A DNA stretch of 64,000 nucleotides, taken from positions 32,001-96,000 of the IMG/VR virus record IMGVR_UViG_3300033145_000529, one strand, 5' to 3'. Positions 8,839 to 30,306 of the stretch are shown piece after piece (positions within the stretch are counted from its first letter, which is position 1; each line of letters starts with the position of its first letter). Position numbers and translations under genes: made by a program. Origin of the DNA: a virus. The notes beneath the pieces were generated by a model. That model searched no databases, was not told the origin of the DNA, and saw nothing but the letters and a program-made list of their open reading frames with translations.

Positions 8839-10341
8839 ATGGCAAATAAGGATAAAAAGAAAACTATAAGTAAAGTGATTACTGGAGAACTAAAACCAGG
8901 TAAACTAGTTAAAGCGGCAGTTAATATTTTGACAGACCCAACTCAAACTGGCTTGGTGTTCACTGAAGAAGTGGACAAGATGGCAATACCAAAAGATTAT
9001 CATAAATTGATAAAAACTTGTAGATTTTTTTACAAGCGTGACCCAATTGCTGGTACTGTTATGAACAAAATGGTTGATTGTGCCATTACTCCTCTGTCAA
9101 ACAAAAAGTCGGAGTGTAGTGATGAGGAGTACGAGGTTTACAATGCCCTAACTGAGATGCTTCAAGAATTCTTTAGAAATGTGTGCCTAGAATACCTACT
9201 CTCTGGTTTAGTTATTCCGCATTATGAGTGGGTGAGAATGAGGGGTAGCGAGCTTTCTCAGAAATTGAATTCTAGACGTAGAGTAACTGTTCCCAATAAT
9301 ATTTGGTTTAGAGACCCCGCAACGGTCACTGTTAAGAATTCAGTTATCCCAAATAAGAAATACTACTTTGTTGATGTTGATGCAAGAACTATATCTTTCA
9401 TTAAGAACAAGGGCAAATATCCTGATGGCACAGTTGATAAGGAGACATATAACGAGTTAGAAAAGAACTACCCCGCATTTGTAAAAGCGGTTCAAACTTT
9501 AAAAGGTACTAAGATGCAGATTAAACTAGAGGACATGAGACCCATTCTTGCTAAGACGCTTCCAGAGGAAGCATACCCAGTACCTTACATGGAAAATGCT
9601 TTGGAGTCCTTGATTCACAAGAGAAATTTGAGGAAAATGGATTATGCGATTGCGTCTAGGGTTGTTTCTGCTATTCAAATAATTAAGTTGGGTAGTGATG
9701 AGTTTCCATGTACAGATGAGACCGATTTTGACCACATTAAGAATCAAATGAATTATAGGACTTCTACAGGGTATCAAGAGAGAGTATATCAATTATTTGC
9801 TAATCATACTCTTAAAATTGAATGGGTATTTCCTGATACACAAGCTATGATAAACACTGAGAAGTATCGTGCTGTTGAGGATGACATAATTGCGGCATTC
9901 GGATTTCCTAGAACATTGATTACTGGTGAAACTTTAAGGTCTAATGTCCAAGGTGGTTCTGATTTTGCGGCATTCTCTCCTATTGCTACTATGGAAACTA
10001 TAAGAGATAGGTTACTTGAGTGGACTAAGGAATTGTACAAAGAAATTAGAGATAAGAATGAGTATATCAAAAATTATCCTATGCCTCAGTTTACACCAAT
10101 GAGACTTTACAGATTGATTGACCTTAACCTGATTGGTCAGTCTCTATACATGGAAGGCAATATTTCAAGGACATCAAGGCAAGAGCTTGTTGGTCTTGAC
10201 TTTGAAACTGAAATTGAGAGAAAGGTTCAAGAGGAGAAAGAGATGAAGGAGAAAGGCATTGACCCTGCTCCTGTATTACCGTTCTCTTCACCAAATATAC
10301 CAAATACTGGTAGAAATCCTCAACAAGATAAGGAGGAATAA
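8839..10341 (+). CDS. portal protein
   Basis: ~500 aa directly after TerL; CRFFYKRDPIAG, IAAFGFP. Confidence 0.85.
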   Translation: MANKDKKKTISKVITGELKPGKLVKAAVNILTDPTQTGLVFTEEVDKMAIPKDYHKLIKTCRFFYKRDPIAGTVMNKMVDCAITPLSNKKSECSDEEYEVYNALTEMLQEFFRNVCLEYLLSGLVIPHYEWVRMRGSELSQKLNSRRRVTVPNNIWFRDPATVTVKNSVIPNKKYYFVDVDARTISFIKNKGKYPDGTVDKETYNELEKNYPAFVKAVQTLKGTKMQIKLEDMRPILAKTLPEEAYPVPYMENALESLIHKRNLRKMDYAIASRVVSAIQIIKLGSDEFPCTDETDFDHIKNQMNYRTSTGYQERVYQLFANHTLKIEWVFPDTQAMINTEKYRAVEDDIIAAFGFPRTLITGETLRSNVQGGSDFAAFSPIATMETIRDRLLEWTKELYKEIRDKNEYIKNYPMPQFTPMRLYRLIDLNLIGQSLYMEGNISRTSRQELVGLDFETEIERKVQEEKEMKEKGIDPAPVLPFSSPNIPNTGRNPQQDKEE

Positions 10342-11021
10342 TGAGGGGAGTAGTTTTAGCGGGTGGTTTAGCTACTAGACTTAAACCGTTAAGTAATGTA
10401 CTTAATAAGCATTTGTTTCCAGTTTATGATTTACCAATGATTTATTACCCAATTAAAACATTGGCAGATGGTGGTATTAAAGATATTTTAGTGGTCATAG
10501 GAGAGAGGTCTGCTGGTGACATTGTTAGCCTATTACAAGATGGTTCTGAGTTAGGTGTTGATATAACATACAGATACCAAGGTGGTGGAGCACTAGGAAT
10601 AGCCCACGCACTAAACATAGCACGTGATTTTGTAGACGGTGATTTTACTCTTATTCTTGGTGACAACCTTTTCTTCGATACGCTTAATTTTACAGCGATG
10701 ACAGTACCTCATTTGTTTTTAACAAAATCAAATACACCAGAGAAGTTTGGTGTGGCAGAGATAGATGATGGCAAAATTATTCGTATTGTTGAAAAACCAA
10801 AAGAATTTGTATCGAATTTAATAGTTACAGGTCTTTATTTGTATCCTAGTAGCGTATTTGAGATTATTGATAGTTTAGAACCATCTACTAGGGGTGAATT
10901 TGAGATTACTGACCTTAATAATAAACTAGGAGGCTGTGACTATACTGTTATAGACAAGTGGTATGATGTCGGTGAGTACGACACTCTACTTGAAGCATCA
11001 AACCGTATAAAAGGAAGGTAA
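10341..11021 (+). CDS. rmlA: glucose-1-phosphate thymidylyltransferase
   Basis: GVVLAGGLATRL, NKHLFPVYDLPMIYYP, LGDN, VEKP, RGEFEITD. Confidence 0.93.
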   Translation: MRGVVLAGGLATRLKPLSNVLNKHLFPVYDLPMIYYPIKTLADGGIKDILVVIGERSAGDIVSLLQDGSELGVDITYRYQGGGALGIAHALNIARDFVDGDFTLILGDNLFFDTLNFTAMTVPHLFLTKSNTPEKFGVAEIDDGKIIRIVEKPKEFVSNLIVTGLYLYPSSVFEIIDSLEPSTRGEFEITDLNNKLGGCDYTVIDKWYDVGEYDTLLEASNRIKGR

Positions 11022-11022
11022 T

Positions 11023-11487
11023 ATGATTTACGGAGTTAAAACTAAAAATCTTAAAATTATCCCAGATGAGCGTGGGTGGTTAATGGAGATTCTACGTAAA
11101 GATGATGATATATTTGAGAAGTTTGGGCAGGTGTACCTATCAGTAGCTTTTGCGGAGAGGGTAAAAGCTTGGCATTATCACAAGATTCAAACTGATAACT
11201 TTACTTGTGTACGTGGGATGATGAAGGTTGTTCTGTATGATGATAGGAAAGATTCTCCAACATTTGGTGAGTTGAATGAGTTTTTTATTGGTGATAAAAA
11301 CCCACTACTTATCAGCGTTCCACCGCTAGTGTGGCACGGGTTTAAAGCTGTTGATGAGTCGGCTTATTTTGTAAGTGTCCCAACATTACCTTATAATTAT
11401 GATGAACCAGACGAGTATAGGTTATCACCAGATACGGATACTATACCATACGATTGGGGGTTGGTAACTGGTTTAAAGCATGGGTAG
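11023..11487 (+). CDS. rmlC: dTDP-4-dehydrorhamnose 3,5-epimerase (cupin)
   Basis: DERGWLME, KAWHYH, DDRKDSPTFG, WHGF. Confidence 0.92.
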   Translation: MIYGVKTKNLKIIPDERGWLMEILRKDDDIFEKFGQVYLSVAFAERVKAWHYHKIQTDNFTCVRGMMKVVLYDDRKDSPTFGELNEFFIGDKNPLLISVPPLVWHGFKAVDESAYFVSVPTLPYNYDEPDEYRLSPDTDTIPYDWGLVTGLKHG

Positions 11488-11494
11488 GTAAATT

Positions 11495-12376
11495 ATGAGT
11501 AAAATATTTGTGACTGGTGGAAGTGGATTGTTGGGTAGTAGAGTAGTAGAAGTGGCTAGGGAGTGTGGACACACTGTTATTTCTAGCTATTGTGATAACT
11601 ACCATAAAGGTGGTGTAAAACTTGATTTATTATTACCAGATGGTTTAGAACCAATATATTCTATAAAACCAGATGTTATAATACATACAGCAGGATTAAC
11701 AAATGTTGATAATTGTGAGGTAAACAAGGAACTGGCTTATAACATAAATGTTGAGGGTACTAGAAGAGTTGCATTTGCTGCTAGAAAATTAGATTGTTTT
11801 TTGGTAGGTATTTCTACTGACTATGTGTTTCCTGGACGAGACGGTGGTCTATACAAAGAAGAAGATAAGACACACCCAATAAACTATTATGGTTATACAA
11901 AGTTGGTCGGTGAGAATTTTTGTTCTAGTGTCGCAAGGTCTTGTGTAATATACGGGTCTATTCCGTCTAGTGGTAAAAAAGATAACTTTGTTCTGTGGAT
12001 TATAAACAATTTAACTGCTGGGAAAAAGATTAATCTTGCTATTGACCAATTTGTAACACCAGTACTAAACTATAATCTGGCTAGTATGCTACTAGAGGTA
12101 GTTAATAATAGAATAGAAGGTACAATTAACTTAGCTGGTGCTAATAGGATTTCTAGATATGACTTTGCAATAGCTATAGCAGAAAAATTTAAACTTAACA
12201 AGTGTTTACTACAACCAGTTACTATGGACGAGCTTCAATGGGTTGCTAAACGACCAAAAGACGCTTCGTTAGATACTACGAAGGCTTCTACTATACTAAA
12301 GGTGAAACCATACTATTTAGATGAGGCTCTAAGTAAATTAGAAAGCGACATGAGAGGTCAGATATGGAAAAAATAG
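11495..12376 (+). CDS. rmlD: dTDP-4-dehydrorhamnose reductase
   Basis: TGGSGLLG, TNVDNCE, STDYVF, YGYTK, KRP..SLD. Confidence 0.93.
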   Translation: MSKIFVTGGSGLLGSRVVEVARECGHTVISSYCDNYHKGGVKLDLLLPDGLEPIYSIKPDVIIHTAGLTNVDNCEVNKELAYNINVEGTRRVAFAARKLDCFLVGISTDYVFPGRDGGLYKEEDKTHPINYYGYTKLVGENFCSSVARSCVIYGSIPSSGKKDNFVLWIINNLTAGKKINLAIDQFVTPVLNYNLASMLLEVVNNRIEGTINLAGANRISRYDFAIAIAEKFKLNKCLLQPVTMDELQWVAKRPKDASLDTTKASTILKVKPYYLDEALSKLESDMRGQIWKK

Positions 12377-13296
12377 CCATTACTGGTGGTGCGGGATTTA
12401 TTGGCACAAACTTTGTTCATTATTTGTGTGAAAGGTATGATGCTAAGATTACTGTTTTTGATAAATTGACTTATGCTGGTAAGAGGGAAAACATTGCTGG
12501 ATTAGATATAAAGTTCGTCCATAAAGATATTTGTGATTTAATCGAAGATGATTTTGATGAGTACGATTGTCTTTACCACTTTGCGGCTGAGTCACACGTA
12601 GATAGGTCAATAACATCACCACATGATTTTCTGAATACTAATGTTTTAGGAACAGTAAACTTGCTAGAACTGTGTAAGAAGATTGGTGTTGGCAGGTTTA
12701 TATATATTAGTACAGATGAGGTATATGGTTCAGTTAGTGTTCCTAGTCGTGAGGTTGACATTCTTAGCCCATCATCTGCTTACTCTGCAAGTAAAGCATC
12801 TGCTGAGACGTTTTGTAATGCTTATTTAAAAACATTTAGAGTTCCTGTGATAATTACTAGAAGCTCTAATAATTATGGTCCTTATCAGCACGAAGAAAAG
12901 CTTATTCCTGTGGTTATTGGTAATGCTTTAAGGGATATGCAGATTCCAGTATATGGTACTGGTAATAATATTCGTGATTGGTTATTTGTAAAAGATAATT
13001 GTGAAGCTGTTGATTTTGTTTCTAGGAATGGTGGTGTAGGGGAGGTTTATAATATTGGGTCCAATAACCAAACTACAAACATTGAAATAATAACAGAAAT
13101 TTTAGGTGTTCTAGGGAAACCAACGAGTCTAATCTCATTTGTTGAGGATAGGTTGGGACACGATAGAGAGTACAGCCTTGATTGTTTTAAGATTAATAAA
13201 CTTGGTTGGAGAGCAAAGTATAATTTTAGAAAAGCCTTAAAGCAGACTTGTGAGTGGTATGAGCAAAGTTTCAGTAATAACACTAAGTTACAATAA
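12364..13296 (+). CDS. rmlB: dTDP-glucose 4,6-dehydratase
   Basis: TGGAGFIG, DKLTYAG, HFAAESHVDRSI, STDEVYG, YSASK, NNYGPYQ. Confidence 0.96.
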   Translation: MEKIAITGGAGFIGTNFVHYLCERYDAKITVFDKLTYAGKRENIAGLDIKFVHKDICDLIEDDFDEYDCLYHFAAESHVDRSITSPHDFLNTNVLGTVNLLELCKKIGVGRFIYISTDEVYGSVSVPSREVDILSPSSAYSASKASAETFCNAYLKTFRVPVIITRSSNNYGPYQHEEKLIPVVIGNALRDMQIPVYGTGNNIRDWLFVKDNCEAVDFVSRNGGVGEVYNIGSNNQTTNIEIITEILGVLGKPTSLISFVEDRLGHDREYSLDCFKINKLGWRAKYNFRKALKQTCEWYEQSFSNNTKLQ

Positions 13297-13972
13297 ACCT
13301 CATCTTATTGGTGAGACAATAGATAGTATCTTAGGTCAAACACTTCAAGATATTGATCTTATTCTTGTTGATAATAGCACAACTAGTAAAGAAGAAGTTA
13401 GGTCTATATTAAGGTCTTATGAAAAGAAAGATAGTAGAATTAGATTATTTTATGAGAATCCAACAGAAGATGAACGAAAATACCAGTATGTGGGTGCTTT
13501 GTATACGAATAAATATATGGATATTGCTGAAGGACAATACTTGTACTTATTGGCTGATGATGATATAATCCTTCCTACTTGTCTACAAGAGTTATATGCT
13601 TGTGCTGAAGCTACCGATAGTCACTGTGCTTACCTAGGTCAAGATTGGGTAGTACCAGGTGAGGTGACAGGTACATGGTCTGTGTGGCAGCATCGTGAGT
13701 ACAACTATATATATGGTACAGCAGCACATTTTCACTGTTCGGGTATTTTGGGACAAAGTAGTGTGATATTTAGAAAGGATTGTTTATCCAAAATTGATAA
13801 ACCATATTTTCCCGTTGAGTGGGAAACAGCAACCATGTGTGACGGGTTGTTTTTGGATAAAATGGCTAAAGAATTCAAAATTTACCCACTTGGTAAAACA
13901 TTATGTATTATTAGGTTCTTTCATGGGAGCAATTTTTCATTGTTATCCCAGAAAGATGTGGTAGGAGAATAG
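13259..13972 (+). CDS. glycosyltransferase family 2
   Basis: VSVITLSYN, LILVDN, LADDD (DxD). Confidence 0.88.
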   Translation: MSKVSVITLSYNKPHLIGETIDSILGQTLQDIDLILVDNSTTSKEEVRSILRSYEKKDSRIRLFYENPTEDERKYQYVGALYTNKYMDIAEGQYLYLLADDDIILPTCLQELYACAEATDSHCAYLGQDWVVPGEVTGTWSVWQHREYNYIYGTAAHFHCSGILGQSSVIFRKDCLSKIDKPYFPVEWETATMCDGLFLDKMAKEFKIYPLGKTLCIIRFFHGSNFSLLSQKDVVGE

Positions 13973-13974
13973 GA

Positions 13975-14799
13975 ATGGAAGAGGTTATAATTGCTATCCC
14001 AACAATTAATAATTTGCAATATCTGAAGAAGTGTATAGAGTCAATTTGTTGCTCGTTTCCATATGAGTTATTGGTTGTGGATAATGGGTCTACAGATGAA
14101 ACGCTTAGTTGGCTTAAGGAAAATAAGATACCACATATCCATCATGACAAGAATTTTGGATGTTCTTATGCTAATAATGAGGCAATGGAGTATTCTTTTT
14201 CAAAAAATAAACTAGTTTTTATTATACATAATGATGTAATTTTGCATAAAAACTGTTTGGATAACCTATATCGTGGATTGACAGAGACAAGAGATTTTGA
14301 CTTGTTATTTGCATTGGAGCACCTAACTGGTAGAGTTAATCGAGAAGTGATGAAAGAGTTCAGATATAATTATATATTTGATAAAGACAATAAAGGGTTA
14401 CCAAATGAGAAAACTATTGAGTATACGGGGGCAAAAGCATCAAGGGGCATTAATTTCACCGTTAGAGCAATTAGGAAGACTGCCGTTGAAAAGGTTGGTT
14501 ATTTTGATGTTAATTACTTTCCCGCTTATTTTGAAGATAATGACTATGGTTTGAGATGTATTTTGGGCAAGGTTAATGTTGGTATTGTTCAAGCTGCTAG
14601 ATACTACCATTTTTGGAGTAGGAGTATACATGAGGGTGGGGTTGGTACATTGAATAGTAAATATTTTGGAGCAAACCAGACATTTTATAATAGAAAATGG
14701 GGTGGAGCTATTGGTAAAGAGACAATATTAGACCCGAATATTAAGCTTTTTAGGACTAGAGAGGAAGATTATGAGCTTATCAAAAACAAAGTCATTTGA
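13975..14799 (+). CDS. glycosyltransferase family 2
   Basis: VVDNGSTD, HNDV, VGYFD..YFEDND. Confidence 0.9.
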   Translation: MEEVIIAIPTINNLQYLKKCIESICCSFPYELLVVDNGSTDETLSWLKENKIPHIHHDKNFGCSYANNEAMEYSFSKNKLVFIIHNDVILHKNCLDNLYRGLTETRDFDLLFALEHLTGRVNREVMKEFRYNYIFDKDNKGLPNEKTIEYTGAKASRGINFTVRAIRKTAVEKVGYFDVNYFPAYFEDNDYGLRCILGKVNVGIVQAARYYHFWSRSIHEGGVGTLNSKYFGANQTFYNRKWGGAIGKETILDPNIKLFRTREEDYELIKNKVI

Positions 14800-15682
14800 C
14801 ATAGTAATGGTGACACCAAATGATGTGTGTATGAAGGCACTTGATTATGTGTTTAAGAATTCTGTACTTGACCATGACATTTATCTTATAGATAATGGTG
14901 CTACTGTACTGGGTTATGACTTGGGAAAGTATAAAGGTTTGATTAAGCTCTCTATACCACATGATACATTAAAAATTCCAGAAATATACAATCAAGCGTG
15001 GAAGCTTACAAAAACTAACTATGTGGCTTTTATACACAATGATACTATAGTATTAGAGCATGGTTGGGACGTTAAAGTTGAGAAATATTTTAACGATAAG
15101 ACGGCAGTTCTTGGATTCTCTGGTGCTACTGGGTATGGTAATGAGAATATATATGTGAGACCATTTGAAAATGCTGATGTAGCAAGGATAGATTTTCGTT
15201 GGAACTTTAATAACAAAGAGGTTAGAGAGTATGCTCTTGAGTGTAGCACTGGGTATGATGATGGTTGGTTGAGGAGTCATGGTAAGAACCTTGATGACGA
15301 GCTGATGGTGGCTTCTGTGGTTGATGGTCTTATTATGATTATAAGGCGTGAAGTATTCGAGAGAATTGGTGGGTTTGATGAGAGGTTTATCTTCCAAGGT
15401 TTTGATGAGAACCTGTGCTTACATGCTATATCTTTGGGGTATGATAATTATATGGTAAATATCAAGTACTTCCACGAGGGTAGCGGTGGGGCTAGTAGTT
15501 ACTTAAACCTGCTAAAAGCACATAACATGAATGACGAGATTGCTGTTGGTAGTCTTGAGGTAAAGAATGGTGTACACAGGGAAGCTTGCTTGTTGTTGTA
15601 TAATAATTGGAAAGAATTGTTGCCAATACGGAAATTGGGTGATACTTTGTGGCAGAGGGTTAGAAATGAAGAAGTCGTTTGA
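14771..15682 (+). CDS. glycosyltransferase family 2 (paralog A)
   Basis: LIDNG, FIHND, VDGL, GGFDE. Confidence 0.88.
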   Translation: MSLSKTKSFDIVMVTPNDVCMKALDYVFKNSVLDHDIYLIDNGATVLGYDLGKYKGLIKLSIPHDTLKIPEIYNQAWKLTKTNYVAFIHNDTIVLEHGWDVKVEKYFNDKTAVLGFSGATGYGNENIYVRPFENADVARIDFRWNFNNKEVREYALECSTGYDDGWLRSHGKNLDDELMVASVVDGLIMIIRREVFERIGGFDERFIFQGFDENLCLHAISLGYDNYMVNIKYFHEGSGGASSYLNLLKAHNMNDEIAVGSLEVKNGVHREACLLLYNNWKELLPIRKLGDTLWQRVRNEEVV

Positions 15683-16490
15683 TATTGTAATTGTTACCCC
15701 TAGTCTTAGTTATGTTAAGACTATTGATTCTATATTAGAGAATTCAACATTAGAGCACGATATTTACCTAATAGATAACGGTGCCAGTTACTTGGGAGTT
15801 GAGTTTGACAAGTATAAGGAATACGTCAAGTTGGTCATTCCTGATTGCAGTTTTTCGTTACCAACTGTTTATAATAGAGCTTGGAACATTACTAAAACCA
15901 ACTTTGTAGCCTTTTTACACAATGACATACTCGTTCTTGAGAATGGTTGGGACGAGAAAATTGAGAGGTATACAAAAGACCATATCGGTATTATCGGCTT
16001 TGCTGGAAGTACTGGTCTCGGAACTGCTGATATTTATAAAGCACCATTTAGGAATGACCAGTTAGTGAGAGTAGGATTTCATTGGAATTTTAACAGTCCA
16101 GACCTTAGAAAATTTGTCAATAAATTAGGTCCACCGTATTGTAATGAGTCATGGCTTAGGGTTCATGGTGTTTGTTTAACTAGAGAGTGGTTACAAGTTG
16201 CATCCGTTGATGGTTTAGCAATAATAGCTAATCGTAAACTGTTAGTATCTGGGGGGTTTGATGAGGAGTATTTATTTCACGGGTTTGATGATGATATGTG
16301 TATGAAATCATTAGACATCGGACTGGCAAATATAATTATCAATATTGGTTATTTTCATGGGGGTTGTGGTGGTAATTCTGGTCATATAGAAATGTTAAAA
16401 GTACACAACAAAGAAGAGTCGCAACTTCATGACGATGCTTGTTTAAGATTGTATAATAAATGGAGACATCTGCTACCAATTAGGTATTAG
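15666..16490 (+). CDS. glycosyltransferase family 2 (paralog B)
   Basis: Tandem paralog of the previous gene (KSFDIV.VTP, HDIYLIDNGA, TKTN.VAF.HND); start ATG15666. Confidence 0.88.
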   Translation: MKKSFDIVIVTPSLSYVKTIDSILENSTLEHDIYLIDNGASYLGVEFDKYKEYVKLVIPDCSFSLPTVYNRAWNITKTNFVAFLHNDILVLENGWDEKIERYTKDHIGIIGFAGSTGLGTADIYKAPFRNDQLVRVGFHWNFNSPDLRKFVNKLGPPYCNESWLRVHGVCLTREWLQVASVDGLAIIANRKLLVSGGFDEEYLFHGFDDDMCMKSLDIGLANIIINIGYFHGGCGGNSGHIEMLKVHNKEESQLHDDACLRLYNKWRHLLPIRY

Positions 16491-16499
16491 GAGACGGTA

Positions 16500-17222
16500 A
16501 TGGACCTAGTGTCAATAATAGTACCAACTTATAATCTTGGTGAAGCGTTGGTTGCTTATTGTATACCATCAATATTACGGCAAACGTATCAAAATTTTGA
16601 GGTGGTAGTTGTTGGTGATGGTTGTACGGATAATACTGAAGACCTTTTACGTAAGTTCAATGATAAGCGTATCCGCTTTGATAATACAATAATACACAAA
16701 CCACCGAGAAGTAAGAATGTCACTAGCGTTGTACCAGGTAATAGGGCTTTAGAGCTGGCACGTGGAGATTGGGTAGCAAGACTTGACGATGATGATATTT
16801 GGACTAAAGACCATCTCGAATTGTTGATAAACTTTGCTCTGGACAACAGGTATAACTTTGTTTATGGAATTCAAGATTGGCGGGGTTCTTTGGTAGGTAA
16901 TGATGCTTTTGGATGTGGTGATGTTGGTAACAGTGCTACCATGTATGACCTTAGAGTATTTGATGAGTTTAGGTACAACATTAATTCTGGAATTCCAGCA
17001 GATTGCGATATACGTGGAAGGATGCTTAAAACTGGAAAAATGGAGCACGGATTCTTACCAACAATAATAACCTATACTGCACCGAGAATAGCTGCGTGGG
17101 AAAAAAGATATTTAACTTACACTGATAGTGGTATAACACCTGTGTTATGGTCAATGAACCAAGCAACTGTGGTAAGATTAAAAGAACTAGGAGATGTTAA
17201 TGAGCAGACCAGAAGGTTATAA
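16500..17222 (+). CDS. glycosyltransferase family 2
   Basis: VSIIVPTYN, GDGCTD, LDDDD. Confidence 0.9.
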   Translation: MDLVSIIVPTYNLGEALVAYCIPSILRQTYQNFEVVVVGDGCTDNTEDLLRKFNDKRIRFDNTIIHKPPRSKNVTSVVPGNRALELARGDWVARLDDDDIWTKDHLELLINFALDNRYNFVYGIQDWRGSLVGNDAFGCGDVGNSATMYDLRVFDEFRYNINSGIPADCDIRGRMLKTGKMEHGFLPTIITYTAPRIAAWEKRYLTYTDSGITPVLWSMNQATVVRLKELGDVNEQTRRL

Positions 17223-18336
17223 TTATTTGGAAATGTTAAAGGAGCATCTTGGTGGAAGTTTTGATTCTGTGTTCAACGGAAAACTTGTGTATCCAAGGCA
17301 ACTAGAAATACATCTACCTGGAGACCTTGTTAGACCATGTAATTTTAATTGTTATTACTGCCAAGGTGGCAAGATGGATAGGATACTATACCCATACGAG
17401 GAAGATGTGCTATGTTTGCTAGATAAGTTTGGTGATGATACTGTGGATAGTCTTGGTAGACACGCACCACCAGTACAGGCATATGGGGGTCAGTATAGTG
17501 AACCATTGCTTAACCCATATCTGTTGAAGCTTATGTTAAAGACAAAGGAGATAGGTTGTTCCTATGGTCTTCATACTAATGGTTCTTTGTTCTTGGACAG
17601 GGAAAATAAAGAAGGGTTTTTAACTAAGATAGTCGGGAATGCTAACTCCTCATTTGATTATATCACTATTAGTTTAGATGCGGGCAAACCAGAAAGTCAC
17701 CAAAGGATAAAAAACACCAAAATTAGTTGGTTTGAGACAATTATTGATGGAATTGCCAAAGCTTGTGAGATTAGGGGTAGTTCACCAACACCAGCAATAC
17801 GTATCGCTTACCTTATGACTGAAATTAATTCTTCATTTGAAGAACTGAGCGGAATGGTTGATATTGCTAAAAAGATAGGTGTTGACTCGTTACGTTTTTC
17901 TATACCGTATGATAACTATGGCAAAGAGTTTGGTAAGGTTCGTCAATATAAAGAAAAAGTTGAGTTACGGTGTAATGATGAATATAAGGAGTTAATTAAA
18001 CCGCTACTGTCGGGTGTTAAACCAGTTGTTTTCTATATTTCTCCAGAAAGTCAAGATGTTGATAGAATGATAATGTTTAAGCAGTGCATATATCCTTATT
18101 ATCAAACTAGTATTTCTTCGGATGGGTATATTTATAGGTGTTCTAGTACAGCGTCACCTAATTTTGCATTTAATCGTGTATCTGGTAGGGTTAGTGATGA
18201 TATGGATGATTTTCATGCAGCACTACTCCGTTCTCAGGACAAAGGTTGGAAACCAAGCACTTGTTTCAAGAACTGTGGACGTTGCAATAGATTAGCTGTT
18301 GAAATCAATAGTGAATGGATGAAATTAAATGACTAA
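17200..18336 (+). CDS. radical SAM enzyme with C-terminal SPASM/Twitch-like Cys cluster
   Basis: CNFNCYYC; SEPLLNP, TNG, ISLD; CIYP..SDGYIYRC..CFKNCGRC. Confidence 0.9.
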   Translation: MSRPEGYNYLEMLKEHLGGSFDSVFNGKLVYPRQLEIHLPGDLVRPCNFNCYYCQGGKMDRILYPYEEDVLCLLDKFGDDTVDSLGRHAPPVQAYGGQYSEPLLNPYLLKLMLKTKEIGCSYGLHTNGSLFLDRENKEGFLTKIVGNANSSFDYITISLDAGKPESHQRIKNTKISWFETIIDGIAKACEIRGSSPTPAIRIAYLMTEINSSFEELSGMVDIAKKIGVDSLRFSIPYDNYGKEFGKVRQYKEKVELRCNDEYKELIKPLLSGVKPVVFYISPESQDVDRMIMFKQCIYPYYQTSISSDGYIYRCSSTASPNFAFNRVSGRVSDDMDDFHAALLRSQDKGWKPSTCFKNCGRCNRLAVEINSEWMKLND

Positions 18337-18409
18337 ATTACATCGGTTGTGGTGCTCATACAGAGTTGTGTGTGTGAACTTTTCTCTGATAGTGGAGGCA
18401 ATAAAATGA
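18329..18409 (+). pseudogene. collapsed class I methyltransferase remnant
   Basis: Start MTKLH followed by GCG in a shifted frame (KLHLGCG-type motif I); end NFSLIVEAIK*; interior absent. Confidence 0.55.
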
Positions 18410-19092: not shown

Positions 19093-19161
19093 GTAGTTGT
19101 TACTAAACTTATTTCTGATGCTCCTATTGGGTATATATATTATTCAAAAGTAGGGGGAAGT

Positions 19162-21766: not shown

Positions 21767-21868
21767 ATGAAAATATGTACAAAGTGCAATAAAGTTGAAA
21801 AGTGCGATTGTGGTTGCACAGAATTTCAATACTCCTTTTTTGGGAAGGAGAATAAAATAAAGAGGTGA
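21767..21868 (+). CDS. 33-aa Zn-ribbon peptide
   Basis: AAGGAG RBS; MKICTKCNKVEKCDCGCTEF... Confidence 0.5.
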   Translation: MKICTKCNKVEKCDCGCTEFQYSFFGKENKIKR

Positions 21869-21873
21869 ATGGA

Positions 21874-22383
21874 ATGCCATACGGCATAAAAAATGAAACG
21901 CCAGAACAAACTAAGTGGATGGAGAAATGTGTTGATAGTATAACTGGCACTAACAAGAGAACTGATAAACCCTACACCAAAGGTGAAAAGATAGCGATTT
22001 GTAAAGTGCAGTTAAAGAAGAGAGGTTCTTCTGAGGCTTATAGCGAAGAAAGTCTTAGGGAGCAGTTCTACGACTTTGAGGATAAAATAAGAGATGCTCT
22101 TTCTCCTTCGTTGATGCGTGAGACACCATCATATGGTCCTTATGTAGTGGACATTTTTGATGATTGTGTTATCGTGGACAAGGGCAACAAGATGTATAAG
22201 TTATCTTATACAATTAAAGGTGACGATGTTTCTTTTGATTGGGGTAGTGCAGTTGAAGTTAAAAGAAGAACTGTTTATGAACCAGTAGAGGAAGCGGAGA
22301 GACAAATCGTAACGAAAGTTCCCCGCATTCCACAGAGGAATGGTGGAAGAATCGTAACTTTTGGTGGAAGAACAGTAAGTTAA
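21874..22383 (+). CDS. head-associated hypothetical protein
   Basis: WMEKCV..IAICK N-terminal motif; located in head module. Confidence 0.6.
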   Translation: MPYGIKNETPEQTKWMEKCVDSITGTNKRTDKPYTKGEKIAICKVQLKKRGSSEAYSEESLREQFYDFEDKIRDALSPSLMRETPSYGPYVVDIFDDCVIVDKGNKMYKLSYTIKGDDVSFDWGSAVEVKRRTVYEPVEEAERQIVTKVPRIPQRNGGRIVTFGGRTVS

Positions 22384-22395: not shown

Positions 22396-23547
22396 ATGAA
22401 AGTTTTATGGATAGGTGATGCCCTCGTGCAGTCAGGGTTTAGCGTGGTGACGCATAGCATCTGTAATCAATTAGTTAATAAGTGTGATTTGGTCGTATAT
22501 GGTGTGCGTAATGATGGTAAATTGAGGCATAACGCTAATTATCACATATATCCAGGTCAACATTCTGAAGACATGTATGGTTTTGATTTTGCCGCACAAG
22601 TTGTGATGCAGGAAAATCCTGATATTGTCGTGCTGTTCAATGATGACCACATTGTTAATAGATACCTTGACGCTATTCGTAATGTGAGTAAGAAATATAA
22701 CAGTTCGGCTAGGATAGTTCCTTTGTTTCCTGTTAATCTGCTACCTGTTGGTAGAGATGTTATGCTTTACTTTACAGTGAAGGATATTGAGCAAGTTATG
22801 ACCTACACTAATTTCTCTAAACGTAAAATTGAAGAACTTAATCCGAACTTAAATGTTACTGCTATTTGTCACGGTGTGGATAGGAATTTATATTTTCCTA
22901 TACCCGATGCTAAAGAACAATTAGGAGTGGGAAAAGATTTTATTGTTGGCAATATCAATTCCAACACTTATAGAAAACGTCTTGATTTGTTACTAGAGGG
23001 ATTTGCCAAGTTTGCCAAGGGAAAATCTGATGTAAAATGTCTTATTCATGCTAATAATCCCGATATAGCATACGATTTACCAACTTTAGCAAAAGATTTT
23101 GGTATAATGGATAAAGTTATTCTTAGTACTGATAAACTAATTGTAGATAAGTTAAATGTTCTTTACAATGTAATGGATATTAACACTAATACAGCACTTG
23201 GAGAAGGATTTGGTTTATCACTTATTGAAGGAGCGGCTTGTGGTGTTCCCATCTTATGTACTGATAATGGTAATCTTAGAGATATTTGGGGCAAGAATGC
23301 TGATTACATTGAAATAGAACGCTCAGAGTATGTTGCTGGTTCTAAGTTTAAAGGTGATGTCATCAGTACTGATGATTTTGCTAAGAAGCTTAATAATTTC
23401 TATGAAGACCGTTCTTATCTATCAGAACGGAAAGAGAACATCTTTGAAGTTGGCAAAGACCCTAAATTTGATTGGTCAACTGTGGCAGATAAGGTTTTTA
23501 AGGTGATTACTACTGCGAACAGAGGAAAATTAGGTATTGTATCTTAA
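22396..23547 (+). CDS. glycosyltransferase family 4 (GT-B)
   Basis: LWIGD..SGF, N..RKRLDL, GEGFGLSLIEGAACGVP. Confidence 0.92.
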   Translation: MKVLWIGDALVQSGFSVVTHSICNQLVNKCDLVVYGVRNDGKLRHNANYHIYPGQHSEDMYGFDFAAQVVMQENPDIVVLFNDDHIVNRYLDAIRNVSKKYNSSARIVPLFPVNLLPVGRDVMLYFTVKDIEQVMTYTNFSKRKIEELNPNLNVTAICHGVDRNLYFPIPDAKEQLGVGKDFIVGNINSNTYRKRLDLLLEGFAKFAKGKSDVKCLIHANNPDIAYDLPTLAKDFGIMDKVILSTDKLIVDKLNVLYNVMDINTNTALGEGFGLSLIEGAACGVPILCTDNGNLRDIWGKNADYIEIERSEYVAGSKFKGDVISTDDFAKKLNNFYEDRSYLSERKENIFEVGKDPKFDWSTVADKVFKVITTANRGKLGIVS

Positions 23548-23628: not shown

Positions 23629-23681
23629 GGGAAACCAAACGTGTTTTGTGCCCGTTTGGGCAAGTTAACGGAGTATTGAGT

Positions 23682-24278
23682 ATGACCGATAAAGAAACTA
23701 AATTTACGTTAAGTCTTGACCTCATCGAGGATAGCGAACTAGCCCAAGCTGGTATTCCTGATGAATATAAGAACCCTCTGTTGACGTGGGTAAGGTTTAT
23801 TTTTACAGATGACTTACCAAATGCGAATAACCAGGGGATTAGTCAAGATGAGTTTTTAAATCTCATCAAGTCTATGTCCTATATGCCAATCAAAGCTGAT
23901 TTTGATTCTGAATTTGGACTTGAGGGACACTCTGAAGCACACATAATTGGAGTTATTAAGGGAGGACAACAGCAAGCAAATAAGGTAGTTACTATTGGTG
24001 CAATATATCACGATGAGTTTCCTGATATTGTTGACTTCTTCAAGAGAGAGATGGCGGAAGGTGGAACTGTGGATTTTTCTTGGGAAATAAGATACAAGGA
24101 TTCAGAGGAAAAAGATGGTGTTGAGTGGCTAAAAGATGTGACTACTAAAGCTGTAACGGCTGTTCAGCATCCTGCTTACCAAGGTAGGACACCGTTAGTT
24201 TCTATCAGTGCGAAGGATTTGGTTCAATTGATAGATGAAGAATTAAAGGACAGAAAAGATACTGAGGTGATTAAATGA
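23682..24278 (+). CDS. prohead (capsid maturation) protease
   Basis: PNANNQG, GH..IIGVI, FSWEI, HPAY; position before scaffold and capsid genes. Confidence 0.7.
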   Translation: MTDKETKFTLSLDLIEDSELAQAGIPDEYKNPLLTWVRFIFTDDLPNANNQGISQDEFLNLIKSMSYMPIKADFDSEFGLEGHSEAHIIGVIKGGQQQANKVVTIGAIYHDEFPDIVDFFKREMAEGGTVDFSWEIRYKDSEEKDGVEWLKDVTTKAVTAVQHPAYQGRTPLVSISAKDLVQLIDEELKDRKDTEVIK

Positions 24279-25252
24279 AAAGATTATTAGACCTAGCTGG
24301 TGTGTCTACTCCTCAGTTATTAGAAATTAAGAAAGTGTTAACGGCTGGTGTTCCTGCTAGTGCAGAGGAGAATAATGATGGTGCTGTAGCTCAGTTGTGT
24401 CATAAGAGTCCTCCAAAGGGTTACCCCAAGGAGAGAGGACAATACGGTGATCCTGAGTGTTATAGATACCCACTTAACACTAAAGCTAGATGCCTAGCCG
24501 CTTGGAGATATGTTCACCAAAAGCAAAATAAATCTATCTTGGGTGGTAAGTTTAAGAAGGTAGAGAGCAAAATCAAAAGTTATGCTAAAAAGAACTATAA
24601 TTTGGATCTTCAGGTTGGTGACTCAGAGGAGTTTGATTGGGAACAAGTATTCATGGAATATTATGATGCTGAGACAATGGGTGAGCGTAGCGAGCTTATT
24701 GACCTTGAACCCGAAGATAGTGAGGTAAAAATGGAAGACAAAGAGAGAATTGAGGCTCTTGAACAGGAAAACAAAGATTTGAAGAGGGAAAAGGAGACTT
24801 GGAGCACTGAAAAATCTGCGTTGGAGATACAGGCTTTGAAGGACGAAAAGGGAACTTGGGTTACTGAAAAAGCTGACCTAGAGGGAAAGGCTTCTCAGGT
24901 TGAGACGCTCACAACTGAGCTTAACAGCCAGAAAGAAGAACTTGAGACTCTAAGAAAGTTCAAGGCTGATACTGATGAAGCCGCTGAAAGAGCGGAAAAA
25001 ATCAAGGGTATCAAAGCTAAGTTAGATGAAGCAGCAATTGAGGCTAATGTGGAAGCTGATGCCGATTACTGGTTGAGTATGACTGATGAGACCCTAGATA
25101 AGACAATTGCTAAGATGAGCGAACTGAAGAAGGGAGCAAAAGCTTCAGCAAGTATAAAAATTCCCCCTGTTGGTAGTGGAGATGAGTCTGACGCAAAAAT
25201 AGTTGTTTCAGATGGTTTGAAAGAGCTAAAACAGGCTAAGGGAGGTAGTTAA
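24275..25252 (+). CDS. scaffolding protein with N-terminal DUF6582-like domain
   Basis: RYPLNTKARCLAAWRY N-domain; acidic coiled-coil C-terminal half with a duplicated EKxTWxTEKxxLE unit. Confidence 0.7.
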   Translation: MKRLLDLAGVSTPQLLEIKKVLTAGVPASAEENNDGAVAQLCHKSPPKGYPKERGQYGDPECYRYPLNTKARCLAAWRYVHQKQNKSILGGKFKKVESKIKSYAKKNYNLDLQVGDSEEFDWEQVFMEYYDAETMGERSELIDLEPEDSEVKMEDKERIEALEQENKDLKREKETWSTEKSALEIQALKDEKGTWVTEKADLEGKASQVETLTTELNSQKEELETLRKFKADTDEAAERAEKIKGIKAKLDEAAIEANVEADADYWLSMTDETLDKTIAKMSELKKGAKASASIKIPPVGSGDESDAKIVVSDGLKELKQAKGGS

Positions 25253-25932: not shown

Positions 25933-26865
25933 ATGGACGAACAAAAGTTTAAAGAAGCTATGGCTCAAATAGCAAAAACTGATAAGAGAGCACTGGCTGA
26001 ACTTATTGTCGAATATGTTGACCCTAAGCACATTACTGCGGACATCGTAGGTATGTTCTTGAACACAAGATCATTAAATCCTGGTGATGCTTTGGTAAAG
26101 AAAGTGCGTAGAGGCATCGAAGTTCGTCAGTTAGTTCCTGGTCAGGATACGCTTGCTAGCCAAATCACAGTGAAAGAAGTTGTGACTTACAATTTGGATA
26201 CAGCTTACGCAGAAGTTGCCCACAATGAGTGGGAGGTAGAGTCAGGTGAAATTGGCACTGTTGACGAGATAAGACGTGAAATGATGGCTAAATTGTCAGA
26301 CTTTTATGTTGTTAAGGTTATGAATGCGTTATATACGCTGGCTACACTTGATGCTGCTAGTGGTGTCGGTGCTACAAACTTCTGGTATTTGACAAGTCTT
26401 ACTAGAAGTGCGTTGGAAGATGCCATTGATAGTATAGCGGATGTAGCTGGAAATGTAAGGGCTGTGGTTGGCAGAAGACCTACCTTAGCTCCTATTACAA
26501 AGTTTGCTGGATATAGGGTTGGTGTGGGAGCCACCGAAGCGGCTGGTTACCCCGTACCTGTTCCAAGCACTTTGGAGGAGATTAAGAGAACTGGTTGGTT
26601 TGGTATGTACTACGGCGCAAATTTTATCAGCTTAGAGCAAGTCTACGATAACCCATATGATAGAAATGGTTTAATCCAAGATGACTTAATTGTTGTTATT
26701 GGTGATAATTGTGGTGAGTTTATTACTTATGGAGACGTAAGAGAAGACCAGTGGACCGATATGGTTACTGCTCCCCCAACTTGGCACATTAGAATTTATC
26801 AGCAATTCGGTCTCCTATTTGACCGTATGGAAAATGTGGGCATCATAAGAACTGATAAAAGTTAA
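25933..26865 (+). CDS. major capsid protein (HK97-like)
   Basis: 310 aa after scaffold/decoration genes; AGGTGA RBS; flanked by hairpins. Confidence 0.8.
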   Translation: MDEQKFKEAMAQIAKTDKRALAELIVEYVDPKHITADIVGMFLNTRSLNPGDALVKKVRRGIEVRQLVPGQDTLASQITVKEVVTYNLDTAYAEVAHNEWEVESGEIGTVDEIRREMMAKLSDFYVVKVMNALYTLATLDAASGVGATNFWYLTSLTRSALEDAIDSIADVAGNVRAVVGRRPTLAPITKFAGYRVGVGATEAAGYPVPVPSTLEEIKRTGWFGMYYGANFISLEQVYDNPYDRNGLIQDDLIVVIGDNCGEFITYGDVREDQWTDMVTAPPTWHIRIYQQFGLLFDRMENVGIIRTDKS

Positions 26866-26866
26866 A

Positions 26867-27996: not shown

Positions 27997-28127
27997 ACTT
28001 GTTTAGAGTATTAAGTGAATGTTCTCAATACTAAGTTGTTGGATTAACTATTTGATTATGGTATCGAGTACTGACTCTGACACCATTTATTATAAAGATT
28101 AAATTGTATGATAAAGGAGAGGAAATT

Positions 28128-28841
28128 GTGGAAGAAAAGGATAGGAACAAAGTTGCTTTAAAAATTATCCAGATTTCAGACTTACATATTACTTCTTTCC
28201 GAAATCTATTATCCCCGATGATTGAGGCTATAAATCGTGAGCAAGTAGATTTAGTTGTGGTGACTGGAGATATTACTCACTATTCTGATGATAAAGACTT
28301 GTTTAAAGTGTCAGAAGCTTCTTTAAACAAGATTAGGCATAGGGTAGTTGTAATTCCTGGGGATTATGATGGGGGAGAATTGTGGAAGGATAGTTTTGGA
28401 GAGGGTCGCTTAAAGGCTTTCAATCTTAATGGTTTTTGTTTGGACTTTCTGGATACTTCATTCATGGGGCATAAATATGCTGTTGGTTGGGCGGACGTTC
28501 TGAAGGACGAAGACCCCGAACAATATGAATGGTTGAAGGAGCAGTTAAAAATTGACAAATACCATCTTGTATTTTCTCATCATCCATTTTGGACTCAACC
28601 AACAAAAGAGGGGGATGAGTACCTAAGCGATACTTTAAGGGCTGTATACTCAGGTCACTTACACGAACCAATAAAATTTTACTTTAAGTACGATAAACCT
28701 AAAGCCCACTTTCCACACGGGTTCACGTGTGTCCCAATGAAATTTCATGGTAATGCGTGTTATATGGTTATCTTGGTTAAATCTAATGGAGAGATGGTTA
28801 ATATTCCCAGGATGGTAAGTGCAAAACGAACAGCATGGTAA
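28128..28841 (+). CDS. calcineurin-like metallophosphoesterase
   Basis: SDLH, TGD, PGDYD, HHP, GHLH. Confidence 0.88.
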   Translation: MEEKDRNKVALKIIQISDLHITSFRNLLSPMIEAINREQVDLVVVTGDITHYSDDKDLFKVSEASLNKIRHRVVVIPGDYDGGELWKDSFGEGRLKAFNLNGFCLDFLDTSFMGHKYAVGWADVLKDEDPEQYEWLKEQLKIDKYHLVFSHHPFWTQPTKEGDEYLSDTLRAVYSGHLHEPIKFYFKYDKPKAHFPHGFTCVPMKFHGNACYMVILVKSNGEMVNIPRMVSAKRTAW

Positions 28842-28845
28842 TGAA

Positions 28846-29015
28846 ATGGGTAAAGTAACACTTATTTGTCAATATTGTGGTAAGAAAAAGACTCTTTATG
28901 ATACTCCAAATATAAAACTAAAGAATTTATGACGAACCACAGCTTAGAATTACTGTTTAGAAAAGATTTGAATAAAATAAGGAGAGGGTTGGATTATGAA
29001 TGGAAACAAGATTAA
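28846..29015 (+). pseudogene. collapsed Zn-finger/endonuclease remnant
   Basis: MGKVTLICQYCGK start; frameshifted C-terminus KTKEF..LELLFRKDL. Confidence 0.4.
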
Positions 29016-30306
29016 GTTGCTTTGGATTGGTGATAGCCCTGCTGTATCAACTGGATTCGGTCGTGTGTCGCAGGGAGTTTTAGAGGGATTATTTCAAAGT
29101 GGAAGATATGATATATCGGTTCTTGGTATTAACCATCCGATTGGTGACCCCCACCGTTATGAAGGTATATTTAGAGTTTACCCCGCCAGAGCGAGGGGGA
29201 ACATTTATGGGTTTAACAGAGTTAAAGAGATTATCACAAAAGAGAAACCTGACCTAATCATAATTAATAATGATTTATGGATAGTGTCGGAGTACGCTAA
29301 GGAAGTTCCTGAAAATAATAGGATTATTACTTATTCACCAGTGGATGCCTTACCTGTTCAGAAAGAGTGGATAGAAGTTCTGGAGAGGGTGAACGCTAGA
29401 GTTGCAACTTATACGGAGTTTGCTAAAGATGGTATACAAGTTGTAAGAGATATTCCTGTAGATGTTATTGGTCATGCTGTAGATACTGATGAATTCTATC
29501 CAATAGAGGATGCTAGAAAGTTTATGGCAAGCATGCCACCAGATGCTTTTATTGTACAGAACATAAATCGAAATCAACCAAGGAAGAGATTAGATTTGTT
29601 CTTGAAGTCAATGCAGGTGTGGTTAGGTCGTTTACCGAAGAGTGATAGAGAAAATATTAGTTTTTATTATCACGGTACTTTAAGAGATGTCGGTTGGAAC
29701 TTGGTTCAACTAGCTCAGAGATGGGGAGTTGATGATAGGTTTTTAATAACTGACCAGACGCACATTAGTCCAGCACAAGGTGTTTCTCTCTCAATGTTAT
29801 GTAAGATATATAATTGTGCTGATGTTCATGTTATGACCTCAATGGGAGAAGGCTTTGGATTGAGCCCATTTGAGAGTGCGGCTTGTGGAGTTGCTCAAGT
29901 TGTTCCGTCCCATTCAGCTTGTAAGGAGTTATGGGAAGGCAGGACACCATTAATTAACATTGACCGTTGGGAAGTCCTTACTGGTGGTGTTAATACCGAA
30001 GGCGGAGTGATTGATGTTGAACATTTAGTGAGTATCTTAGATGACTTGTATCATAATAGAGAGAAAACTAAGGAGTATGGAAGGGCAGCCTACAATTACG
30101 TTCAATGTGAGAAGTTCACTTGGGAGTATATCGCTAGGCAATTTGATGGAATGATTCAGGAAATTATGAAAGCTGGTGACTTGTCATTGTCTAAAAAGTT
30201 TTCTACAGAAGAGCAAAAGCTCATTGAAACCCCCGCATTAGAAGGCAAGGAAGCCACTGTAGCGGGAGAAAAAGAGAAAAAAGATGGTGACGTTTCCAGT
30301 AACTAA
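28996..30306 (+). CDS. glycosyltransferase family 4 (GT-B), paralog of 22396
   Basis: LWIGDS..TGFG, NRNQPRKRLDL, GEGFGLSPFESAACGV. Confidence 0.92.
   Translation: MNGNKIKLLWIGDSPAVSTGFGRVSQGVLEGLFQSGRYDISVLGINHPIGDPHRYEGIFRVYPARARGNIYGFNRVKEIITKEKPDLIIINNDLWIVSEYAKEVPENNRIITYSPVDALPVQKEWIEVLERVNARVATYTEFAKDGIQVVRDIPVDVIGHAVDTDEFYPIEDARKFMASMPPDAFIVQNINRNQPRKRLDLFLKSMQVWLGRLPKSDRENISFYYHGTLRDVGWNLVQLAQRWGVDDRFLITDQTHISPAQGVSLSMLCKIYNCADVHVMTSMGEGFGLSPFESAACGVAQVVPSHSACKELWEGRTPLINIDRWEVLTGGVNTEGGVIDVEHLVSILDDLYHNREKTKEYGRAAYNYVQCEKFTWEYIARQFDGMIQEIMKAGDLSLSKKFSTEEQKLIETPALEGKEATVAGEKEKKDGDVSSN

Follow-up and report, generated by a model that had tools for sequence, protein, structure and literature searches.

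A 64,000-nucleotide stretch of phage DNA (the window), comprising bases 32001-96000 of the 148,197-bp IMG/VR contig IMGVR_UViG_3300033145_000529, carries a large block of sugar genes immediately downstream of the portal gene. The contig derives from an uncultured phage and is rated 100% complete by CheckV. The genes of the window all lie on the plus strand, and guanine-cytosine (GC) content across it ranges from 0.35 to 0.42 without a sharp break. An earlier note on this DNA, made from the sequence alone, had described 14 contiguous, closely packed sugar genes after the portal and two separate glycosyltransferases (GTs) of family GT4; all 14 genes are present with Pfam support at 10341-21704, with intergenic gaps of -116 to +126 nt, and the two GT4 genes were located at 22396 and 28996.

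The block begins with four genes resembling those of the deoxythymidine diphosphate (dTDP)-L-rhamnose pathway. The first (10341..11021) encodes a short, 226-amino-acid form of an RmlA-like sugar-1-phosphate nucleotidylyltransferase (NTP_transferase, 3.8e-48), whose best NCBIfam matches, rmlA_long (187 vs a cut-off of 320) and rmlA (178 vs 361), both fall below cut-off; family matches suggest that its nucleotide specificity may be for dTDP. The second (11023..11487) encodes an RmlC-superfamily cupin that could be a 3,5- or 3-epimerase or an isomerase (dTDP_sugar_isom, 3.7e-15). Among PDB entries it is closest to 3EJK, an uncharacterised 'dTDP sugar isomerase' (3e-24), followed by archaeal RmlC and GDP-heptose 3- and 3,5-epimerases at approximately 1e-10 to 1e-8, and because its score against NCBIfam rmlC (TIGR01221) is weak (37.9 vs a cut-off of 155.75), we describe it as a cupin of uncertain regiochemistry. 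Next are an RmlD-like dTDP-4-dehydrorhamnose reductase (11495..12376; RmlD_sub_bind, 2.3e-56), with a full-length match to TIGR01214 scoring 200.5 vs a cut-off of 224.05, and the dTDP-glucose 4,6-dehydratase RmlB (12364..13296; 4,6-dehydratase Pfam, 1e-63), which is the only one of the four to exceed its curated NCBIfam cut-off (TIGR01181, 378.9 vs 365.1). The earlier note had called this set a full dTDP-L-rhamnose pathway, a description that holds for RmlB, leaves RmlD slightly short of its cut-off, and overstates RmlA and RmlC.

Five GT2 genes follow, as had been claimed. Three are clear members of Glycos_transf_2, namely GT2 a (13250..13972, 7e-16), GT2 b (13975..14799, 9e-18) and GT2 e (16500..17222, 1.7e-25), and two are marginal matches to Glyco_tranf_2_5 just over its cut-off, namely GT2-like c (14771..15682, 3e-6, 27.5 bits vs a cut-off of 27) and GT2-like d (15666..16490, 4e-7), which probably begins with the ATG of position 15666 and not at 15567. 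The proteins encoded by c and d are tandem paralogs with 45% identity (E 3e-95). The remainder of the block comprises a radical S-adenosylmethionine (SAM) enzyme that probably performs a sugar-tailoring step (17194..18336; Radical_SAM, 5.6e-9, with sub-threshold NCBIfam matches only), a SAM-dependent methyltransferase (18349..19035; Methyltransf_24, 6e-8), a GFO/IDH/MocA sugar oxidoreductase (19162..20067; GFO_IDH_MocA, 6e-14), a PseH-like GNAT N-acetyltransferase (20057..20611; Acetyltransf_3, 5e-19; NCBIfam PseH, 65.7 vs a cut-off of 93.1) and, as the last gene, a DegT-family nucleotide-sugar aminotransferase (20598..21704; DegT_DnrJ_EryC1, 5e-107) whose best NCBIfam matches are the C4 aminotransferases PseC, ArnB and WecE.

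The left border of the block is a candidate portal gene (8809..10341), identified by remote matches to phrog_2739 (portal, 1e-7) and, by tblastn, to the portals of Bacillus phage G (1e-11) and the Basilisk group. Its stop codon overlaps the rmlA start as TAATG, as first noted from the sequence, and a GGAGG motif lies just upstream. A plus-strand scan for intrinsic terminators from the portal to the putative protease at 23646 returned none that was convincing, the sole match being a weak stem-loop inside the first GT4 gene, and a promoter scan found 84 matches vs 69 +/- 9 expected, i.e., chance level. At the right border, a 33-amino-acid Cys-rich mini-open reading frame (ORF) with a CxxC...CxCxC pattern (21767..21868), read from what had been taken as intergenic DNA, is the first conserved element of the right flank and is kept in the relatives L012, L016 and L019; it is zinc-ribbon-like and overlaps the start of the next gene by 4 nt. 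That gene encodes p172, a conserved 172-amino-acid protein (21865..22383) that is 48-79% identical in seven relatives. The block was originally placed between the portal and a prohead protease. This position stands, but the protease label is weak, and the mini-ORF and p172, between the DegT gene and the first GT4 gene, had been missed.

A hypervariable locus with conserved flanks

Scanning viral and metagenome contigs for the portal and GT4 genes yielded more than 60 loci. Approximately 18 distinct contigs have portals 60-90% identical to that of the phage under study (WIN; relatives carry L-numbers) and are referred to as clade A. Gene order in clade A is constant: u185, the large terminase gene, the portal gene, the variable block, p172, the first GT4 gene (GT4-1), the protease candidate, a 325-amino-acid gene, h204, the major capsid protein (MCP) gene, h166, h162, a metallophosphoesterase gene, the second GT4 gene (GT4-2) and n149. 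The flanks, comprising the portal, p172, GT4-1 and the head genes, are 51-91% identical, whereas the genes between the portal and p172 differ, and the length of this variable block ranges from 5 to 12 kb. The 151 ORFs of these islands fall into 90 clusters at >=40% identity, 53 of which are singletons. At least seven cassette types can be distinguished (dTDP-, GDP-, heptose-like and glycerophosphotransferase-type among them), with some modules common to several; the module most often common to different cassettes is GT2 b, with homologs of 30-42% identity in several relatives.

The relatives' cassettes encode quite different sets of enzymes. One contains a GDP-mannose 4,6-dehydratase (GMD, 502 bits vs a cut-off of 415) together with Fcl-like, DegT, GNAT, NUDIX and C-methyltransferase genes, and another contains an RfaE-like/PfkB/HAD/split-transketolase set whose families suggest that it may produce a heptose. 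A further cassette carries a TagF-like glycerophosphotransferase, a cytidylyltransferase-GNAT fusion, a class-III aminotransferase and three methyltransferases. In yet another, an AroB-like sugar-phosphate cyclase and a kinase are accompanied by three MptE-like (PF01973) domains, a family that probably includes the Maf flagellin glycosyltransferases, although no Maf match was obtained.

DNA similarity between WIN and L012 stops at 10292 and resumes at 21861, i.e., at gene borders. WIN, L012, L031 and L034 have portals that are 88-90% identical, and most pairs among them have no island genes in common, the pair WIN-L034 having three; L016 and L031, with portals 66% identical, have five of six island genes in common at 73% identity. 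Cassette type is decoupled from backbone similarity. With their conserved flanks and non-homologous counterparts in relatives, the 14 genes constitute one allele of a glycan-cassette locus that is hypervariable, and the two GT4 genes and p172 form the conserved part of this locus in clade A. Two of the loci, L038 and L017, proved to be the same 152,753-bp contig, with the portal at its end and p172 and GT4-1 at its start, so that the island spans the contig ends, which fits a circularly permuted or circular assembly.

These loci also bear on whether the sugar block is foreign to the phage genome, through chimeric assembly or bacterial contamination. The GC content of the island is slightly lower than that of the head genes (0.35-0.37 vs 0.40-0.42), which would favour a foreign origin, but its strand, gene spacing and Shine-Dalgarno usage are continuous with the flanks, and in independent contigs from many metagenomes this junction holds a sugar island whose breakpoints are sharp and coincide with gene borders. 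Chimeric assembly, which the earlier note had named as a potential objection, is excluded because approximately 18 independent contigs carry an island at the same site, and we give essentially no credence to a foreign origin of this kind. The rmlA and rmlB products are moreover 64-82% identical among phage relatives, whereas no cellular species representative exceeds 53% identity to RmlB, indicating that the island genes are not recent captures from a host. An attempt to identify a host or donor from RmlB failed, as the best cellular matches (43-53%) are spread among archaea, Clostridia, Bacilli and Actinomycetota.

The conserved GT4 pair and the sister clade

GT4-1 (22396..23547; Glycos_transf_1, 8e-13) matches PDB 3OY2, the chlorovirus protein B736L, over its full length (1e-29) and has an EX7E motif at residue 270. 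This gene is conserved in clade A only, where it is 51-88% identical among relatives. GT4-2 (28996..30306; Glyco_trans_1_4, 1.6e-7) occupies a head-neck slot in both clades; 3OY2 is its sole PDB match (4e-24), and its EX7E motif is at residue 285. The two proteins are paralogs (28% identity, 2e-50), and B736L of chlorovirus NY-2A is the best solved relative of both by a wide margin. By these matches, both belong to a B736L-like group of viral retaining GT-B glycosyltransferases.

A sister clade, clade B, is marked by portals of only 37-45% identity. In clade B, the portal gene is followed directly by the protease candidate, h204 and MCP, and there is no island, p172, GT4-1 or phosphoesterase in the corresponding slots. 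GT4-2 orthologs (33-38% identity) are nevertheless found between h162 and n149 in all 11 of the clade-B loci that reach that far, and seven of the eight loci with upstream DNA carry a sugar cassette between u185 and the terminase gene. The genes of these cassettes are 27-61% identical to clade-A cassette genes, and their content varies between loci. These findings imply that the glycan system is old and has persisted in the whole group, with GT4-2 as a constant core and the cassette shifted by one gene. The earlier note had suggested searching related phages for rml and GT islands between portal and protease; in clade A an island does occupy the portal site, but its content differs, and clade B has no post-portal island.

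Homologs of GT4-1 and GT4-2 are also encoded by cultured phages, at 23-36% identity, with GT4-2 being 35-36% identical to the GTs of S-EIVl and S-CBS4. In the Synechococcus phage S-CBS4 (gp014-016), the portal gene is followed by a hypothetical gene, the GT, GalT and a methyltransferase, with the protease and MCP genes further on. The homolog lies between the MCP and head-tail adaptor genes in the Microcystis phage Mae-JY09, and in the Pontimonas phage phiPsal1 (gp010-012) the order is MCP, GT, methyltransferase, GT2 and neck. In TJE1 the homolog follows three nucleotide-sugar genes just before the small terminase gene, and S-EIVl is the only one of these cultured phages in which it lies outside the structural module. 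The clusters of S-CBS4, Mae-JY09 and phiPsal1 thus occupy slots similar to those described here (portal-protease or MCP-neck), but they comprise only one to three enzymes and no nucleotide-sugar synthesis. In the literature we found no link between S-CBS4 and glycosyltransferases, and no variation study or functional test of these small GT clusters. A further head-module sugar cluster was seen in a more distant phage lineage (L022, IMGVR_UViG_3300045952_000362), in which DegT, a CAP59-like GT, a GT1 and a GT4-2 homolog (37%) at 5399-12544 lie directly 5' of a gp6-like connector gene and tail genes.

The probable acceptor and its alternatives

We propose that the block is a hypervariable cassette allele in the packaging/head operon of a group of uncultured 130-155 kb phages and that its most likely role is to glycosylate virion proteins while these are in the cytoplasm of the host, a reading to which we assign a probability of roughly 0.6. 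The RmlA-like enzyme would activate glucose-1-phosphate, and RmlB would provide a dTDP-4-keto-6-deoxyhexose as a hub for two branches. Along one, the RmlC-like cupin and RmlD may yield dTDP-L-rhamnose or a close 6-deoxyhexose; along the other, DegT followed by the GNAT enzyme may yield a 4-acetamido-4,6-dideoxyhexose, which the methyltransferase, the radical SAM enzyme and the GFO oxidoreductase may tailor further. Both the order of these steps and their products are predicted from enzyme families. The soluble GT2s and GT4s would then add sugars singly and directly to a protein acceptor, independently of any lipid carrier, flippase or polymerase. The GT4 pair, above all the ancient GT4-2 of the head-neck slot, would make the protein-proximal linkage, while the swappable cassette, exchanged between phages by recombination at gene borders, would supply and elaborate the outer sugars. 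The earlier note had likewise proposed that the phage has its own nucleotide-sugar supply and seven soluble GTs inside a late structural operon, for which the enzyme families, their predicted solubility and their position argue, and its interpretation of self-made sugars forming a glycan on the particle is partly supported and is extended by the finding of swappable cassettes.

A virion acceptor would fit the coupling of the island to a late operon, the fixed head-neck position of GT4-2, the head-module homologs of small phages, the antigen-like turnover of cassettes and the precedent of the mycobacteriophages. In the latter, phage GTs place glycans on the subunits of the capsid and the tail tube (as summarised in PMC12619734 and PMC11256854), and in Che8, Corndog and Myrna soluble phage GTs and methyltransferases, comparable to those encoded here, are thought to modify the phage's own capsid or tail subunits in the cytoplasm (Freeman et al. 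2023, as summarised in PMC12619734 and PMC11256854). The GT genes of Maravista, an F1-cluster relative of Che8, lie near the right genome end rather than in the head operon (PMC11256854). Unlike the mycobacteriophages, the phage described here has in addition nucleotide-sugar pathways, seven GTs and a cassette subject to exchange among close relatives; in the literature we found, virion glycosylation has been demonstrated only in a few mycobacteriophages, with no sign of their own sugar synthesis.

The genome also lacks the parts by which bacteria export surface glycans. None of the island proteins has a hydrophobic or transmembrane segment, nowhere in the 148-kb genome does an ORF reach six hydrophobic segments, and a genome-wide search for an initiating polyprenyl-phosphate transferase gave no Bac_transf match, although its positive control worked. 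Parts of a Wzx/Wzy- or ABC-dependent polysaccharide locus (initiating transferase, flippase or transporter) are absent from the genome, in agreement with the initial observation that membrane, flippase and Gtr components are missing.

Several observations weigh against a virion acceptor, and some of them bring in other explanations. The best NCBIfam matches of the GT2s, although weak, are to enzymes acting on lipid-linked acceptors (TuaG, WcaA, EpsE and PglI for GT2 e), as would suit the remodelling of the host envelope. In that case, the phage enzymes would extend undecaprenyl-linked intermediates of the host, whose own initiating transferase, flippase and ligase would display the changed glycan as an altered wall polysaccharide, O-antigen, teichoic acid or S-layer glycan, and this could block superinfection or the sticking of progeny to debris. 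The TagF-like glycerophosphotransferase in one relative's cassette is of the teichoic-acid type, the usual interpretation of cyanophage sugar genes is that they modify the host surface (PMC12801897), and cytoplasmic O-antigen GTs likewise lack transmembrane helices. However, the complete genome encodes no initiating transferase, flippase, polymerase, ligase or Gtr part, and GT4-2 is fixed between head and neck genes across a deep divergence. Translational coupling to the portal would, moreover, mean late expression, with little time for remodelling before lysis, and the distance of RmlB from cellular homologs implies that these genes are not recent captures matched to the pathway of one host. 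We consider envelope remodelling unlikely.

A second difficulty for virion glycosylation is that no acceptor motif, Ser/Thr-rich tail or stretch, or collagen-like or mucin-like protein was found in the genome. The glycan could instead be placed on some other soluble target, such as a non-virion phage protein, a host protein (e.g., flagellin, pilin or a translation factor) or a small molecule made on infection, and the radical SAM, C-methyltransferase and sugar-phosphate cyclase genes of the cassettes do resemble those for natural-product sugar tailoring; the genome also encodes other, as yet unexplained, systems for protein modification. This explanation appears improbable, given that the locus stays in the packaging/head operon in two clades and that GT4 homologs lie in the head modules of unrelated small phages; strain-level swapping of cassettes also suits an exposed antigen better than an intracellular target.

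The clade-B cassette likewise counts against the preferred reading, as it sits between the putative small-terminase and large-terminase genes, which links it no less to the packaging module than to the head module. Cassettes adjoin terminase or portal genes in both clades, and the GT clusters by which phages glycosylate their DNA take diverse forms, some of them lying beside terminase or structural genes (10.1101/2023.12.21.572611), so the sugars might be put on phage DNA bases before or during packaging, evading restriction, with cassettes varying under pressure from host nucleases. One relative's cassette begins with an Asn-synthase/QueC-like gene. In the genome, though, there was no match to Thymidylat_synt (ThyA), DNA_methylase (C5), TGT/DpdA or 2OG-FeII_Oxy_3 in searches whose positive controls worked; a Tet_JBP search was uninformative, as its control did not work. 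Seven GTs and deoxy-amino-sugar tailoring exceed the mono- to trisaccharide DNA modifications described in 10.1101/2023.12.21.572611, and the GT4 homologs of small cultured phages lie between MCP and neck genes. DNA hypermodification is thus, in our judgment, very improbable.

The remaining points against virion glycosylation concern its supporting evidence. Late expression of the island is suggested by its position only. The acceptor of B736L, which binds GDP-mannose, is itself unknown and may not be a capsid protein (PMC9614988). A tblastn search of 50,697 phage records with GT4-1 and GT4-2, in which the GT2s were not used as queries, returned no mycobacteriophage at E <= 1e-5. Finally, the MCP and protease labels rest on remote evidence, and AlphaFold2 models of the MCP (mean pLDDT 32.6, from a 5-sequence alignment) and of p172 (56.9, from 7 sequences) were unusable.

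The distinctive features of this system are its self-sufficient nucleotide-sugar supply and a hypervariable locus with a conserved B736L-like GT4 core. The glycogene clusters of Mimivirus and other Megavirinae encode rhamnose, viosamine and other pathways for fibril glycans, and their content differs by clade, as is the case here (PMC9614988). As far as enzyme families allow the comparison, they also share with this phage a viral 4,6-dehydratase hub leading to rhamnose and a 4-acetamido-4,6-dideoxyhexose, methylation and gene clustering. Giant viruses, however, use UDP-linked sugars and have eukaryotic hosts, whereas the RmlA and RmlB matches here point to dTDP, and the block described here, unlike the Mimivirus clusters, lies in the polycistronic head operon of a tailed phage and turns over between relatives whose portals are approximately 90% identical. 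Chlorovirus B736L (NY-2A; PDB 3OY2/3OY7), considered here together with PBCV-1 A546L, is a soluble viral GT-B enzyme like the GT4s of this phage, although sequence identity is low. The comparison with giant viruses drawn in the earlier note is therefore apt, since both GT4s are closest to B736L among solved structures and the relatives' cassettes differ by clade as the Mimivirus clusters do.

Two bacterial systems resemble the locus in its variability. The flagellin glycosylation islands of Geobacillus comprise five types that correlate poorly with phylogeny and are horizontally exchanged (PMC5109656); there too, a variable block of sugar and GT genes lies among genes for a self-assembling surface polymer and acts in the cytoplasm without a lipid carrier, the difference here being the viral context. 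Bacterial O-antigen and capsule loci are similarly fixed between conserved flanks, with mosaic rml, gmd, DegT and GT modules that are decoupled from the backbone, but they need an initiating polyprenyl-phosphate transferase and Wzx/Wzy or an ABC transporter, none of which is encoded by this phage.

The exchange of cassettes would give close relatives different glycan 'serotypes', implying diversifying selection on an exposed structure. Whether the locus is in effect a serotype locus, with a recombination-swapped cassette and a conserved capsid-module GT pair producing a strain-specific sugar coat on the particle, is more tentative, and we hold it to be a possibility at slightly less than even odds. 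Such a locus would correspond, in a virus, to the O-antigen and flagellin-glycosylation islands of bacteria. The phage surface would then have to be under strong diversifying selection, e.g., by host adsorption-blocking factors, grazers, or lectin-like or immune-like recognition, much as the surface antigens of bacteria are. If virion glycosylation is correct, rare sugars (deoxy-, amino- and methylated forms, possibly also heptoses and phospho-substituents) are made by an environmental phage family that is abundant and that exchanges complete glycan pathways at a single hotspot of its head operon. A head module containing B736L-like GT4 genes would then be a simple genomic marker for glycosylated phages, the shared GT family would link phage and giant-virus glycobiology, and the cassettes would represent soluble, lipid-independent toolkits for protein glycosylation. 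The cultured phages with homologous GTs (S-CBS4, Mae-JY09 and phiPsal1) make the central claim directly testable.

Neighbouring packaging, head and tail genes

The phage is large and probably siphovirus-like, with a tape-measure gene of 1198 amino acids (35321-38917) and a gene order that mark this as the structural region. Its nearest cultured relatives are Bacillus phage G, the Basilisk group and the Microcystis phage MaeS, at 22-27% identity, and a megablast search of the region against the 50,697 phage records returned zero matches. Upstream of the portal lies the probable large terminase subunit gene (7217..8824), recognized from a tblastn match to the gene that is annotated as terminase large subunit in Caudovirales GX15bay (E 1e-9); it is 66-88% identical in clade-A relatives, and the left flank is conserved. 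Just 5' of the packaging genes, at 4271-6313, is a class I/II-like ribonucleotide reductase large subunit gene (phrog_84, 1e-138) that is 68-89% identical in clade-A relatives.

The probable prohead protease gene (23646..24278) was assigned from its position, one UniRef name ('Prohead protease') and weak Atlas leads to S77/S78 proteases, with nothing found in Pfam, PHROG or PDB. In the sister clade, the protease candidate adjoins the portal directly on its downstream side. One close relative of this protein (P0219, 81% identical) is assigned at NCBI to a 'Bacilli bacterium' metagenome-assembled genome, a weak hint of host group. The following gene (24275..25252) encodes a 325-amino-acid head protein, possibly a scaffold, that is specific to clade A (54-75% identical in relatives) and is missing from the slot in the sister clade. 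The probable MCP (25933..26865) shows remote homology over its full length to gp36 of Basilisk (E 7e-6), itself a putative MCP (PMC6145125), scores 0.98 for the Atlas 'phage capsid protein family' and is 75-91% identical in relatives. Relatives of the protease and the MCP carry the precomputed families PF27290 and PF27364, respectively, and PDB profile searches with alignments of the protease, the MCP (5 and 23 sequences) and p172 gave nothing meaningful.

p172 consists of two modules that are found apart elsewhere (325 matches at E <= 1e-3). The N-terminal module of approximately 55 residues, with a PYGIxNExP...AIAICK motif, occurs in many stand-alone proteins of 50-120 amino acids, and the beta-rich C-terminal part corresponds to approximately residues 190-340 of many proteins of 450-700 amino acids. 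Searches with a long protein that bears this C-terminal domain yielded nothing in the PDB and nothing significant against the protease profile. Nor is p172 homologous to the hypothetical genes located ahead of the GT in TJE1 or S-CBS4.

Two further observations concern the head and tail modules. A calcineurin-like metallophosphoesterase gene (28104..28841; Metallophos, 2.6e-13) adjoins GT4-2 and is kept in clade A but is not in that slot in clade B; as a speculation, the enzyme could be tied to glycosylation, e.g., by hydrolysing nucleotide by-products. In the distal tail proteins (38919-47946), the dipeptide Ser-Gly exceeds Gly-Ser by 42:18 vs 125:120 in the remaining proteome (Fisher p = 0.009), which may be a weak lead to an acceptor motif or a feature of the fold.

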